Below the pieces are notes generated by a model. That model did no database searches. It was not told the DNA's origin and was given only the letters and a program-made list of their open reading frames with translations. The position numbers and the translations under genes were made by a program. 64,000 nucleotides of DNA from Tubiluchus corallicola (Eukaryota > Animalia > Priapulida): NCBI GenBank assembly GCA_030141605.1, contig JAQGDQ010001037.1, positions 1-64,000 of the forward strand. The letters run 5' to 3'. How positions within the stretch are numbered: position 1 is the stretch's first letter; each line of letters starts with the position of its first letter. Shown piece by piece: positions 9,887 through 29,250 of this stretch.

Positions 9887-9987
9887 TTATTCCTCCTTTT
9901 TTTCAGCTCCGGTCAGCTCATTGTCCCAGTCTGGCCAGTACTTCTCCTTCATGCGGTAACAGTAGTCTTGAAGATTAGGGAATTCAT
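9887..9987 (-). CDS. FAXC: FAXC terminal exon 6c (DEFPNLQDYCYRMKEKYWPDWDNELTGAEKKEE*)
   Basis: ttgtag acceptor, phase 1. FAX C-terminal motif NL..YC.RMKE.YWPDW. Stop TAA at 9889-9887. Confidence 0.9.
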
Positions 9988-10137
9988 CTACAACGAAAAA
10001 TTTATTACAAATGACATTAAAATCTTGATAAAACGTATCGGTAAAGCCACACTTTGGTTTAACGATGAATATTTCTTCAGATATGATACTGTTGTCAGCC
10101 CTGGATTAATTGTTAAGCAAAATAATCATGTGATTCT

Positions 10138-10502
10138 GGTTTCCGGAGACAAGGGAGATCTCACTCAGGGTTTCCGGAGACGAGGGAGATCTCACTCAGG
10201 GTTTCCAGAGACAAGGGAGATCTCACTCAGGGTTTCCGGAGAAGAGGGAGATCTCACTCAGGGTTTCCGGAGACGAGGGAGATCTCACTCAGGGTTTCCG
10301 GAGATGAGGGAGATCTCACTCAGGGTTTCCGGAGATGAGGGAGATCTCACTCAGGGTTTCCGGAGATGAGGGAGATCTCACTCAGGGTTTCCGGAGACGA
10401 GGGAGATCTCACTCAGGGTTTCCAGAGACAAGGGAGATCTCACTCAGGGTTTCCAGAGACAAGGGAGATCTCACTCAGGGTTTCCGGAGACAAGGGAGAT
10501 CT
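10138..10502. repeat. 31-bp minisatellite, about 12 copies (GGGTTTCCGGAGACGAGGGAGATCTCACTCA)
   Basis: Near-identical head-to-tail units with no spacers. Confidence 0.95.
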
Positions 10503-10567
10503 CTCAGTTTATCAAATCCAATAATTAACCTAAAGTAAAATTGTTGTGTTTTGTTTCTCTCGGAAGG

Positions 10568-10852
10568 CTCGTAGAGACAACCAGAAAAAAGGTCGTCAAA
10601 TTAAACTAGTTTATTATGCGAGAATTTTACAACACAAAAGTATGAAGGAATGCAAAATGTTTACAGTAAATGTGATAATCTGGAAACGTGAAAGCGTATC
10701 TGAGAATACGAGAGAATAAACTCCAGCGGCCAGCTCCGCCTTGTATATCGGTGCCAAGGAACAATCTAGAAATAGAAAGTTCTCGAAACTTCTGCAAGGT
10801 AAGAAGATTGTTCTACAATACTATAGAATATTCCAGAATAAACTCCGCAACA
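10568..10852 (-). mobile_element. Candidate solo LTR (Ty3/gypsy-like)
   Basis: The minus strand starts TGTTGCGGAG, then has a TATA-like GATATACAAGG and an AATAAA near the far end. The distal terminus is imperfect. Confidence 0.45.
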
Positions 10853-11027
10853 AGTCTTTGATTTATGTTTTTAACTCATGTCTATACTTTTATATAATAT
10901 ATTGGTCTAGGCATGTAGGCATGTATAAATTTATTCATGTATTAATATATGGAGAGATTTAAAAAATCTCCCGTATTCTAATTTGCTAATCTGGTAACCC
11001 TATTAGCAAAATTCGTAGGCTTCTCAC

Positions 11028-11144
11028 CCTTGATGTATGTTTCCTGAGGGGAGTTCGGAGCACTCCATACGCACTGTGCCAACATTCCAAATATAGCGCA
11101 ATCAACCTCACATGCCGTTTCACCCATAATGTACGGCTTAGAAC
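11028..11144 (-). CDS. FAXC: FAXC exon 5c (GSKPYIMGETACEVDCAIFGMLAQCVWSAPNSPQETYIK)
   Basis: gcatag acceptor and G|gtgag donor, 117 nt, phase 1-1. GST-C/metaxin N-capping motif. Confidence 0.9.
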
Positions 11145-11200
11145 CTATGCAAACGGGAAGGGTATAGCAATTATATTTCAAGAGTATGATCTATAGAGAC

Positions 11201-11631
11201 AAGGGGTGAACATTCTCTACCAGTAAGCGAATTCGAATCGAATCGAATTTGCGACTTTCGAATTCGAATCGAACCGAATTTCACTATTTCGAATCCAAAT
11301 CGAATTTGAATTAAGTTTGAAAGATTTTCGAACAAGTTTACAAGCCACTAGTAAAAAGTGGTCTTAGAAAGATCGTGCATATTACTTGATTTCGTTCTGC
11401 AGTAAAACCGCCTTTAGTTTGTTAAAAATTTTGCACAAAAACTGCAGGTAAATTGTGCCAATTGCTTGTTTTTCAAACATTTTAATGATAAAGAACTTAT
11501 GCGGCTAAAGTTCAAATTAGTGGCTGAATTATTTGAATCTATAATGTTAGGTTCAAATCAAATCCGAACTTAAAAAACACATTTGAATTGAATTCGAATG
11601 ATCGAAGTCGAACATTCGATGCTTACCCCTA
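11201..11631 (+). mobile_element. hAT-like MITE, family H1
   Basis: TIRs (A)AGGGGTGAACATT...ATGCTTACCCCTA. 8-bp TSD ATAGAGAC/ATAAAGAC (7 of 8 match). Confidence 0.85.
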
Positions 11632-26269: not shown

Positions 26270-26475
26270 CGAGAAAAGTGGACAGCGCAGACAGATCGCC
26301 AGCGGTAATTTGCTGCACTTCGTCGCTGGTGTGGCGACCGATGCCCTGGCCCCACAGCTGTTTCCGAATGACGTGACGAAGCATGAGTGGGAGTATCCAC
26401 AGTTTGAAGCCAGTGTAGGGCATGATACTGCGTACGTTTGTCAGATCACCAGCTAGGGAACAGTAACACATGGTC
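26270..26475 (-). CDS. FAXC: FAXC exon 4a (WTMCYCSLAGD...GQGIGRHTSDEV...GDLSALSTFLG)
   Basis: ccctag acceptor and G|gtgaac donor, 206 nt, phase 2-1. QGIGRH and DL.ALS.FLG motifs. Confidence 0.88.
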
Positions 26476-27020
26476 CTAGGGAGAAAATATATTGTTGGTA
26501 TTCTCTGCAATCTAATTGTCTATACAGACAAAATTATATACCATGTGTGTGCTTGCAAACCAAAACCGCCCACAAGTCGGTATAGTTAAAATTGTGTTAT
26601 GATGCTTCAAAGTAGAATGCACTAAAAATTTGATCAAATATCGATTTTTTGTTTTTTACAAAAACAAGCGCTAAATAAAATATATGTAAGATTAATCTTT
26701 TGTGATGATTTTTAGTGTTTAGGCCATATTTTTTCAATTATGGTAGTGAATTTTTCTATAAACTTCTTCACGGCTTTCTCCACTGTCTCCATTTTCGTAC
26801 TCGCAAATTATTTTTGGACACGTCATTTTTTTCTTATTTGCTCAATGAACATGTCACTTTAAATGCATTAGGTGGTAATGAATTTGGAGTTATAACTAAT
26901 TTTGAGTCAACATAGCGGAACTGCACAATGTCGAGGTTTGGCAACATTCTTACTATAATTAACACTACCATCACCACTGCCACGAACCAAAACCACTACT
27001 ACGTATACTACACTACTTAA

Positions 27021-27553
27021 AGGAAAACCGAACGATTGCGTAAACATTAGTTCAGAATAAAGAATGCTCTAAAATATTGAAAACGGCAATAGCCTTTTTT
27101 AAATCAAGGCTTAGAATAAATAATAGTTACCTTGGATACTCAAATTTTGTTAAACTTTCAAAGTTGCGTGTGGCTCAGTGAATCTACTAAGATTGGCAAC
27201 GGTGCCTTTTTGTCACATGCGCGTGGTCGACAAATAAAAGACGGTACCGTGATAACCACGATCATGAAATGTAGTGTCAGTTTCTGATGTCATATGATGT
27301 AGAGCCCACTTTCGTGACATCACGTATTAAGCAGTAACACTTATGCAAACATGCTTGACATGCAAGGGAAGATGCCTATTATTGCACAAACTGTGGTTAG
27401 TTTCTGACATAAGCAATAGCTGTGTTCGGTTGCCGTTAATTAACTTCCTAAGCTAATTATTCAAATATAAGAAATAATTGCTAACTTTTATAGGCAAGAA
27501 AATGTATATCTTGGACAGTAAATTAAAATGAGATGAAATCGTCCGGTTTTCAT
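27021..27553. mobile_element. TTAA-type (Kolobok-like) element family K1, copy 2
   Basis: TTAA-AGGAAAACCGAACGATT...AATCGTCCGGTTTTCAT-TTAA. Confidence 0.8.
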
Positions 27554-27793
27554 TTAACTACACTAATAATTACTACTACTTAATTACAGTACTACATTTT
27601 TCTCTACGTTGCACATCTACAAACATCAGCCAGACCCTGACCCCCACCCCACTACTCGGCAAAACAAAAGTATGACAGCTAAAGACCCGAAATGTCTCTT
27701 TAAAACATGTCAAAGTGCTAAATTGTAAACCAAGACTTAGATGTAGCGAGATACTGCTTAGATAAATCTAATGAGTTTTCTTCGTTGCCCTAC

Positions 27794-27990
27794 CAGTACA
27801 AATTCTCCTCCGTCATCTTCTGGAACGCTCTAGCGATCGCTCTCTCCTCTTTTGACAAGTGCTTGTTCAAATCCACGTCCAACTTCTCATTGAGGAAGTC
27901 AATGCAGAATTGGGAGTCGGCAATGTCTTCCCCATTGTACGTAATCCAGGGAGTCTTCCCCTTTTTTGAGAACCCATCACTGTGGTCATT
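27794..27990 (-). CDS. FAXC: FAXC exon 3 (NDHSDGFSKKGKTPWITYNGEDIADSQFCIDFL...ARAFQKMTEENLYW)
   Basis: tctag acceptor and TG|gtaggg donor, 197 nt, phase 0-2. GK.PW and DS motifs of the GST N-domain. Confidence 0.92.
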
Positions 27991-28631
27991 CTAGACAAAT
28001 GGTTTTTGCAAATTAAAAAGTTTACATTCCATAATACAAAACTACCCAGTTTACAAGTATTATACCAAGGCTTATTAATAGCTGAATCAATTATTTCAGT
28101 GCAACACAAATAGCTCACAGTGGCTTAACTACTGAAGTTAAGATAGTACTGAGTCTGGTCAGTAGATGGATGGTTGAACCACTCTGATTTTCCTTCTGGA
28201 TGGTTCTGTTCACCGTGCTGATCTGGGCTGTTCACTTTGCAGAGGTAGGATGCATACACAACCAAATGTGACAGGCACACCACCATTGGTTCGGTGGCTC
28301 GTCTTAGAGGCATAACCTGGATAATTAGCTAGGTTCTCGTCTCGCCATGACCATATAATTTGAACAGGAGTTCAATCAAACAAAAATTTGCTTAAGAATT
28401 GTGTACAGAAATCACAGCTAAATTGTGCTCGTTGGATGATGTTTCAAATGTTTTAATGACAAAGAACATATGCAATTAAAGAAAAATTGATGAAACTTAT
28501 AATCATCTGAAGCGAAACATAGCCAGCATATGTGACAAGGTGCAACGTTTTGTAAACATTTTCTTTTGTTGTCATCAGTTGTGCAACTAGCCTCACATGA
28601 ACAACTAATAAATGTTTGCAAATTTACTTAC

Positions 28632-28770
28632 AATGTACGGTATGCTAGCCATGCGTAGATAAGTTTCCAGTTTGAGGGGGAATGGTGAAATGCTGGGGAC
28701 GTATTTGCCACGCCCAATCTGATGAAGTACGACCGTATCCGTCGGGTAATCCTGCCGTTTTTTCTTTTCA
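28632..28770 (-). CDS. FAXC: FAXC exon 2 ([46 protein letters not shown])
   Basis: tttcag acceptor and gtaagt donor, 139 nt, phase 2-0. FAX signature [16 protein letters not shown]. Confidence 0.93.
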
Positions 28771-29170
28771 CTGAAATTTTGGCATTTAGTAGAATCAATA
28801 TTTTTGAATATTTTTTAATTTTTTTTCTAAGTACGAGTAAATGATTTAGTTCAATACCTATTTTGGGCGATGTTGTTCTTGACAATGAGCCAGGCTTCCA
28901 CAACGCCTACTTGAATGGGCCCTCCCTTTAAGTGCTTTCCACCACACAGGAGTTTGAGAGTTCTATATTTTTCAGTTCAAAATGTGCATCATATTGGAAA
29001 TGGCTGCTTTTAAATAGTTGCCACGTTTTGATTGTCCTTCGCTATTTTTTGCACCATTATACATGCATTTATCTACGTCCATATCAGGTTGAAAACACCG
29101 GTTCTCGTCTGATAGGAAACTGTAGAAAAATTTATCTTACTTAGTAGAAGCCTGCCATTTGTATACCCAC

Positions 29171-29250
29171 CTCATGCGTTTATATTGTTTGAATGCAAAA
29201 AATGAAATCAGAAGTGCAGTCGATACGAATAAAATTTCAAAACCAGCCAT
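29171..29250 (-). CDS. FAXC: FAXC exon 1 coding part (MAGFEILFVSTALLISFFAFKQYKRM), N-terminal membrane anchor
   Basis: ATG in GGGATGG context, then a hydrophobic stretch and basic residues. Phase-2 donor AG|gtgggt, with an alternative in-frame donor AA|gtaaga at 29141. Confidence 0.75.

Follow-up and report, generated by a model that had tools for sequence, protein, structure and literature searches.

The 64,000-nucleotide window analysed here (positions 1 to 64,000 of contig JAQGDQ010001037.1, assembly GCA_030141605.1, from the priapulid Tubiluchus corallicola) carries on its minus strand a gene which, judged by its domains and relatives, we assign to the failed axon connections homologue family (FAXC), proteins with a predicted metaxin-like glutathione S-transferase (GST) fold. 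The locus holds a single set of exons 1-3, followed by exon 4a, then module b (4b-5b-6b) and module c (4c-5c-6c). The exons, in the order of the minus strand, are:

29171..29250, minus strand: exon 1, 80 nt of coding sequence with the start codon and a predicted membrane helix at the N-terminus; shared
28632..28770, minus strand: exon 2, 139 nt; first half of the GST N-domain; shared
27794..27990, minus strand: exon 3, 197 nt; second half of the GST N-domain and most of helix 4; shared
26270..26475, minus strand: exon 4a, 206 nt; "type A" lid exon, without exons 5-6 of its own
22162..22370, minus strand: exon 4b, 209 nt; module b's version of the lid exon; open frame, AG/GT
18690..18806, minus strand: exon 5b, 117 nt; GST C-domain core
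16393..16493, minus strand: exon 6b, 101 nt coding, closed by TAA; first of the two alternative last exons
12121..12323, minus strand: exon 4c, 203 nt; module c's version of the lid exon
11028..11144, minus strand: exon 5c, 117 nt; GST C-domain core
9887..9987, minus strand: exon 6c, 101 nt coding, closed by TAA; second of the two alternative last exons

These ten exons are as placed by a preliminary description of the locus, with one-base corrections to 4c (12323-12121), 5b (18806-18690) and 5c (11144-11028). Its reading of intact frames, canonical splice sites and conserved phases was borne out for all seven variable exons: AG/GT is present at every internal exon border, and 4a, 4b and 4c (206, 209 and 203 nt, 32-54% identity) all run from phase 2 to phase 1. 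The seven colinear exon combinations all translate (7/7), into proteins of 278-280 residues with a single terminal stop. Joining two exon 4s gives a stop at residue 209-211, which agrees with the mutual exclusivity by reading frame that had been proposed, and skipping exon 4 gives one at residue 140-146. The lone front half, with no further copy between the modules, also stood: a sensitive tblastn search of the whole 64 kb with each of exons 1, 2 and 3 found no second copy (best other match, E 0.26), and profile hidden Markov models built from 154 homologues detected exons 2 and 3 once each, exon 4 three times and exons 5 and 6 twice each.

A stop codon closes each of the modules b and c, and 4a departs from this pattern of complete 3' ends. 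The first AATAAA lies 702 nt downstream of 6b, and others follow 6c at +208, +214 and +301; in this AT-rich DNA these are weak signals. Read-through of 4a into its intron was considered as a real end and rejected, the low-complexity tail that it adds coming from a tandem repeat.

The family assignment draws on Pfam and on the nearest relatives. Exon 3 matches GST_N_4 (1.5e-18) and Tom37 (1.1e-5), exons 5b and 5c match GST_C_6 (4e-11 and 1.6e-8), and exon 2 matches GST_N_4 at E 5e-4, which taken alone is below the curated cut-off. Every functionally named protein among 32 matches is a failed axon connections homologue and none is a metaxin. The predicted membrane helix of exon 1 has a Kyte-Doolittle hydrophobicity of 1.99 over residues 2-20.

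The modules are old, selected duplicates. Between paralogous exons the nonsynonymous distances (dN) are 0.30-0.82 in exon 4, against 0.09-0.14 in exons 5 and 6, and synonymous distances (dS) are 1.1-2.3 or saturated (4b against 4c: dN 0.30, dS 1.14). The dN/dS ratio, about 0.07 for exons 5-6 and about 0.26-0.27 for 4a/4b and 4b/4c, indicates purifying selection. Exons 5-6 of the two modules are 74-81% identical; among the exon 4 copies the first ~38 residues are 11-41% identical and the rest 53-70%. An assembly artefact or duplicate, earlier held to be unlikely, is ruled out by these synonymous distances and by introns that are unalike: outside the exons, modules b and c have only dispersed repeats in common, and the window contains no N.

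Splicing in transcripts and relatives

Transcript evidence comes from run X1, 13 Mb of contigs under the same species label as the window, which we guess to be RNA. Its contigs were compared with positions 21990-29400 and 10520-12430. They include a spliced joint between exons 1 and 2 (28770-29171, CT..AC), and exon 2 is covered with 11 differences in 123 positions. A 194-nt contig of depth 126.5 places its letters 53-194 on exon 3. A record of equal length and depth places letters 23-55 on the start of exon 4c with 0 differences in 33 positions, and its loose end is the end of exon 3; at the same 33 positions 4b differs from 4c at 10 and 4a at 26. Since one contig thus fits exon 3 and then exactly the 4c start, exon 3 is spliced to 4c, by a joint that spans 15.5 kb and passes 4a and all of module b. 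In another contig 4c is followed by an exon 5 across a CT..AC joint (11142-12119). Three spliced joints in all point to RNA or to a retrocopy as the source of these contigs. Neither 4a nor 4b is covered by a contig in X1, a run too small for absence to count, and no cross-module joint (4a-5c, 4b-5c or 5b-6c) was seen among its contigs.

For exon 4a the joint to exon 3 is found in a relative. The shared front half is closest to those of Priapulus (84/112) and Owenia (80/108), and a second Priapulus RefSeq model, XP_014673905.1, joins 1-2-3-4a-5, the last by its start. Exon 4 of this model is identical to 4a at 49 of 68 residues (72%), its exon 3 to that of the window at 44 of 65 (68%), which shows 4a to be strongly conserved. 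A tree of exon 4 (31 rows, 70 columns, LG+G4) groups 4a with Priapulus (100/99) inside a "type A" clade (98/99) that also holds molluscs and one model from Lingula; an earlier 39-row mixture-model tree gave 95/92. Constraint tests (approximately unbiased, p-AU) rejected both the three window exon 4s as one clade (0.002) and the four Lingula copies together (0.017). Because of the type A clade and the rejected monophyly, the split between 4a and 4b/4c is likely older than that between ecdysozoans and lophotrochozoans. In a quick tree the exons 5-6 of the two modules form only a weak group (83), but they are mutual best matches, and their duplication looks lineage-specific. For the mollusc A and B genes, an origin by splitting of a spliced gene inside molluscs found no support: the constraint to one clade was rejected (p-AU 0.022), and the other groupings gave p 0.19-0.46.

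Lingula anatina offers the same design in its annotation. RefSeq isoforms X1-X4 (XP_013418978.1 to XP_013418981.1) share one sequence as far as the exon 3 border, save that X2 is one residue short near the start. Between X3 and X4 the exon 4 segment alone changes (24% identity); X1 and X2 differ in exons 5 and 6 as well. As in the window, then, an identical front is followed in two isoforms by a swap of exon 4 only and in two by a swap of exons 4-6. Lingula differs from the window in that its isoforms are automated annotation, its type A exon lies in a separate gene model, on a contig of equal length, and the orthology of its non-A exons to 4b/4c is uncertain. The type A model matches X3/X4 at 95% in the front half, 87% in exon 5 and 96% in exon 6, and at 20-37% in exon 4. 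This would follow if a locus with both exon types had recently been duplicated, the alternative being gene conversion between neighbours. The Lingula model XP_023931415.1 contains two letter-identical copies of exons 2-4 ahead of a single exon 5-6 set, by very recent duplication or as an assembly artefact.

Such pairs were counted among 154 full-length homologues, a set made of the best 120 of 1,024 matches, earlier matches and cluster members of 200-345 residues, which may miss cases. Fourteen pairs combined a front half of 90% identity or more with an exon 4 of 75% or less; nine of them are from Lingula (exon 4 at 18-37%), and the other five lie at 65-75%, as for recent paralogues. The shared-front design of Lingula and the window may be ancestral or have arisen twice, a choice that trees of the columns outside exon 4 leave mostly open.

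A search of representatives returned 17 weak matches, mostly single-exon open reading frames, and no 4b ortholog was found in 10 candidates among longer proteins. A Nematostella model with two matches was set aside, its internal repeat being nearly identical and so unlike a pair of diverged exons. For 4c, the best match among stored proteins is a single-exon Logan open reading frame, 32/58 identical and possibly a 4c ortholog from another animal.

Invertebrate FAXC genes are described in multi-gene clusters in section 12 of a preprint (bioRxiv 10.64898/2026.01.05.697642), and eight of the 52 metagenome FAXC loci that we examined (mostly 1-5 kb) hold tandem whole genes. None of the 52 has an extra exon 4 without a preceding exon 3, and none of 49 matches in them is a clearly type A exon 4; the loci being short, both are weak controls. 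Several loci (L002, L004-L007, L012, L013 and L016) are compact FAXC genes with short introns and about the same 2/3/4/5/6 borders as in the window, several of them tandem.

Proposed isoforms and their rivals

We propose that the shared exons 1-3 are spliced to 4c and likely to 4a or 4b, yielding likely three main proteins that differ mainly in a predicted lid: 1-2-3-4a-5b-6b, 1-2-3-4b-5b-6b and 1-2-3-4c-5c-6c. We hold this reading with reasonable confidence. One part of it, that the locus is one gene with at least two isoforms, is very probable; another, the use of all three exon 4s, is quite probable.

Under this proposal the exon 3 donor would serve every exon 4. A first choice would be made between the mutually exclusive 4a and 4b ahead of a common 5b-6b, with 4a presumably spliced to 5b. 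A second choice would be that of an alternative 3' module, in which exon 3 jumps the 15.5 kb to 4c and transcription runs past the 6b end; polyadenylation after 6b would probably compete with this jump. Exclusivity would be kept by the reading frame, two or zero exon 4s leading through a premature stop to nonsense-mediated decay. The preliminary description had joined exon 3 to each of the three exon 4s and counted up to seven isoforms. Of the three junctions, that to 4c is seen in one contig and that to 4a only in the Priapulus model, with the Lingula isoforms supporting the scheme as a whole, and 4b has no transcript. The seven combinations, all in frame, are a combinatorial ceiling; no cross-module product was seen.

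The position of the exchanged segment was read from the AlphaFold model of Lingula X4 (mean predicted local distance difference test score 80). It has two inserted helices, H156-163 and H170-186, between H126-154 and H194-212, and the exon 4 segment (residues 146-213) comprises the last turns of helix 4, both inserted helices, a glycine-rich loop and helix 5. Helices so placed, between helix 4 and helix 5, are named 4b and 4c in PMC10452860, in the text available. The preliminary description had the whole C-domain as the swappable unit. A swapped part of it holds; the whole domain does not, for helix 4 starts in the shared exon 3 and exons 5-6 of the modules are similar.

The best match in the PDB is StyI (9qd3), at a Foldseek E of 1.6e-13 and 30% identity; metaxin homologues from the SAM complex (for sorting and assembly machinery) rank 3-8 in the same search, at 9e-8 and 20%. 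With phmmer StyI was the only sequence match among 177,635 (E 1.1e-22), over residues 43-268, which include the inserted helices. The glutathione-binding (G-site) motifs of GSTs are the start of helix 1, the cis-proline loop and Asp/Glu-Ser, and the second-substrate site has the end of helix 4 as part of its lining. Lingula X4 retains the N-domain motifs that align with StyI, and these can also be seen in window exons 2-3. StyI conjugates glutathione to styrene oxide at 48 U/mg (PMC8552685). This bacterial styrene-oxide GST is a clear homologue of FAXC, and the available text of that paper mentions neither FAXC nor metaxin.

By analogy with StyI, the exon 1 helix would anchor the protein in the membrane, the constant half would bind glutathione, and the swappable helices would face the substrate or a partner. 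Animal FAXC proteins have no established biochemical function. The GST-type role that had been proposed for this locus is accordingly tentative in both its parts: neither glutathione binding nor specificity is established for any animal FAXC, and GST-type catalysis with specificity set by the lid is, in our estimate, somewhat short of an even chance. A membrane-anchored GST-type enzyme whose lid sets the substrate range is nonetheless modestly favoured over a non-catalytic adaptor.

A number of observations weigh against these readings. Transcript support amounts to one small run with one contig per junction, and the X1 contigs are 5-9% off the window (7/142, 11/123 and 8/107; of the 14 differences listed, 10 are synonymous), so that their source may be a diverged population or a paralogous locus with only module c. 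The exon 5 piece of the 4c joint has 6 differences in 41 from 5c, and 5b and 5c also differ at 6 of the same 41 sites, so that its belonging to 5c is not firm. The similarity of the Priapulus model fades partway through exon 5. Exon 4b has no close ortholog (best 25/56) in addition to having no transcript. The lid was placed on the model of a Lingula homologue, not on window isoforms. Finally, section 7 of PMC10452860 presents metaxin models in which the inserted helices cover or block the G-site, and predicts that human FAXC dimerises with MTX2, which favours a non-catalytic role.

The blocked G-site of the metaxin models and the predicted FAXC-MTX2 dimer, together with the rank of the SAM-complex metaxin homologues in the fold search, are the grounds for the strongest alternative, in which splicing is the same but the products are non-catalytic, metaxin-like adaptors whose swapped helices alter a binding partner or a membrane contact. 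We regard this as a serious possibility, though one that falls well short of even. A proven enzyme, StyI, is far closer than the metaxins by both E value and identity, and the StyI-aligned N-domain motifs, whose usual role is to bind glutathione, are kept in the Lingula query and in window exons 2-3. The multi-gene clusters of invertebrate FAXC (8/52 loci) also speak for the enzyme, as a pattern that we would link to detoxification families.

Returning to the three proposed proteins, it is unlikely that only 4a-5b-6b and 4c-5c-6c are real while 4b, left over from the duplication of the module, has recently fallen silent. The lack of a close ortholog would fit this, as would the sole contig piece on 4b, which is best explained as cross-mapping of the 4c contig (depth 6.36, corresponding to ~39 letters at 40.4). 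Against it, 4b has kept an open 209-nt frame, both splice sites and its phase despite a dS of ~1.1 from 4c, with dN/dS ~0.26, and the small size of X1 deprives its silence there of weight. That all seven colinear combinations are made at meaningful levels is equally improbable: they are in frame, and the exon 5 of the 4c joint is not firmly 5c or 5b, but no cross-module joint was seen, such products would require skipping a terminal exon or two internal exons, and the Lingula models pair each exon 4 with one exon 5-6 set. Very unlikely is a row of decayed tandem genes, in which exons 1-3 disappeared from modules b and c and an intact paralogue in another part of the genome supplied the X1 transcript. 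Tandem arrays of whole genes are what FAXC usually shows (8/52 metagenome loci), the X1 contigs diverge from the window and our search covered its 64 kb. Against this, the seven variable exons are intact, the introns unalignable and dS near-saturated; since 4a lacks its own exons 5-6, an exon 4 has to be skipped in every complete protein from this locus; and Lingula has the shared front as annotated isoforms.

As to history, the locus may have begun as a core 1-2-3-(4A or 4B)-5-6, to which a lineage-specific duplication of 4B-5-6 was then added. A bolder version, which we consider rather doubtful, is that the protostome ancestor had one FAXC gene with exclusive type A and type B lid exons; that this pair was kept for more than 540 million years in slow-evolving lineages (a priapulid-like ecdysozoan and Lingula), each adding lid exons and 3' modules; that molluscs keep type A in stand-alone genes; and that the isoforms act as glutathione-epoxide transferases anchored in the membrane, with a single exon switching their substrate range.

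Several other features share the window. At 1679-2653 on the plus strand lies a long exon with the C-terminal domain of CAF1 p150 (Pfam PF15539, 7e-14), the convergent 3' neighbour of FAXC. Upstream of FAXC, on the opposite strand, two LIM-domain exons (58107-58262 and 58989-59213, plus strand) belong to a gene which we take to be abLIM-like. A palindromic family resembling miniature inverted-repeat transposable elements occurs at 8429-9123, 11202-11633, 22503-22887, 28385-28481 and 55333-57926, several copies being in FAXC introns; inverted copies upstream of 4b and downstream of 4c are 73% identical over 405 nt and could pair in the pre-mRNA. A degenerate interstitial telomere-like array of ~79 copies of a CTAACC unit occupies 48218-48665, and an inverted duplication of ~460 nt (91% identity) surrounds a GAT-rich repeat at 33089-34408.

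Comparison with known systems

We found no published description of FAXC splice forms or exclusive exons among the papers listed by a literature search that covered sources other than subscription journals and preprint supplements, and the words "exon", "splicing" and "Lingula" are absent from the main text of two FAXC preprints. Human FAXC isoforms differ solely in N-terminal length, according to the available text of 10.1101/2023.01.04.522723, and invertebrate FAXC diversity has been described, in the text at hand, as whole-gene clusters, unlike the exon swap of the window. The earlier statement that this design had not been described for FAXC thus stands as far as papers go. It does not extend to annotation, where the Lingula isoforms are present as automated RefSeq models. 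The preliminary description also lacked the point that 4a is a probably ancient exon type.

The locus would form a natural domain-swap set, in which the same anchor and N-domain, and twice the same C-terminal core, are combined with a different 68-residue lid. Comparing the isoforms would test FAXC as a GST-type enzyme and the inserted helices as setters of specificity. The exon swap would also be a second route of invertebrate FAXC diversification besides whole-gene clusters and 4a with its alternatives a candidate for a very old, conserved pair of mutually exclusive exons, whose extra products a single-isoform annotation would miss.

Of proteins with a similar fold, metaxins and human FAXC share GST_N_4, Tom37 and GST_C_6 as well as the inserted helices 4b and 4c, as set out in available parts of PMC10452860 and of the Adolph preprints. 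StyI, from Gordonia rubripertincta, differs from the window protein in being bacterial, in having no match to the N-terminal helix region and in having no isoforms.

As a splicing system, the locus recalls Dscam1, in which tandem clusters of homologous exons are used one exon at a time. The window has only three copies, which lie kilobases apart and are interleaved with terminal modules, and docking/selector pairing is at chance: the longest perfect complement between the first 794 nt of intron 3 and the 500 nt upstream of each exon 4 is 8-9 nt (perfect matches, one placement), which 175-200 of 200 random stretches equalled.

The nearest precedent is GSTD1, reported by Ranson et al. in 1998 and said to combine a shared 5' part with alternative 3' parts. 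Diversification of GSTs by splicing is already known: GSTD1 of Anopheles gambiae has four alternatively spliced variants (PMC2588609, PMC3634070, in the text available). Both are single GST-fold genes with several products by alternative splicing, GSTD1 being a soluble GST of the delta class and the window gene a FAXC with a predicted membrane anchor. One 5' exon set with several complete 3' ends is a pattern that modules b and c share with the GSTD1 type and that 4a does not fit. Unlike in GSTD1, the switch in the window FAXC falls late in helix 4, an extra exclusive pair precedes a common 3' end, the 3' modules consist of three exons, and the exon types are apparently far older.

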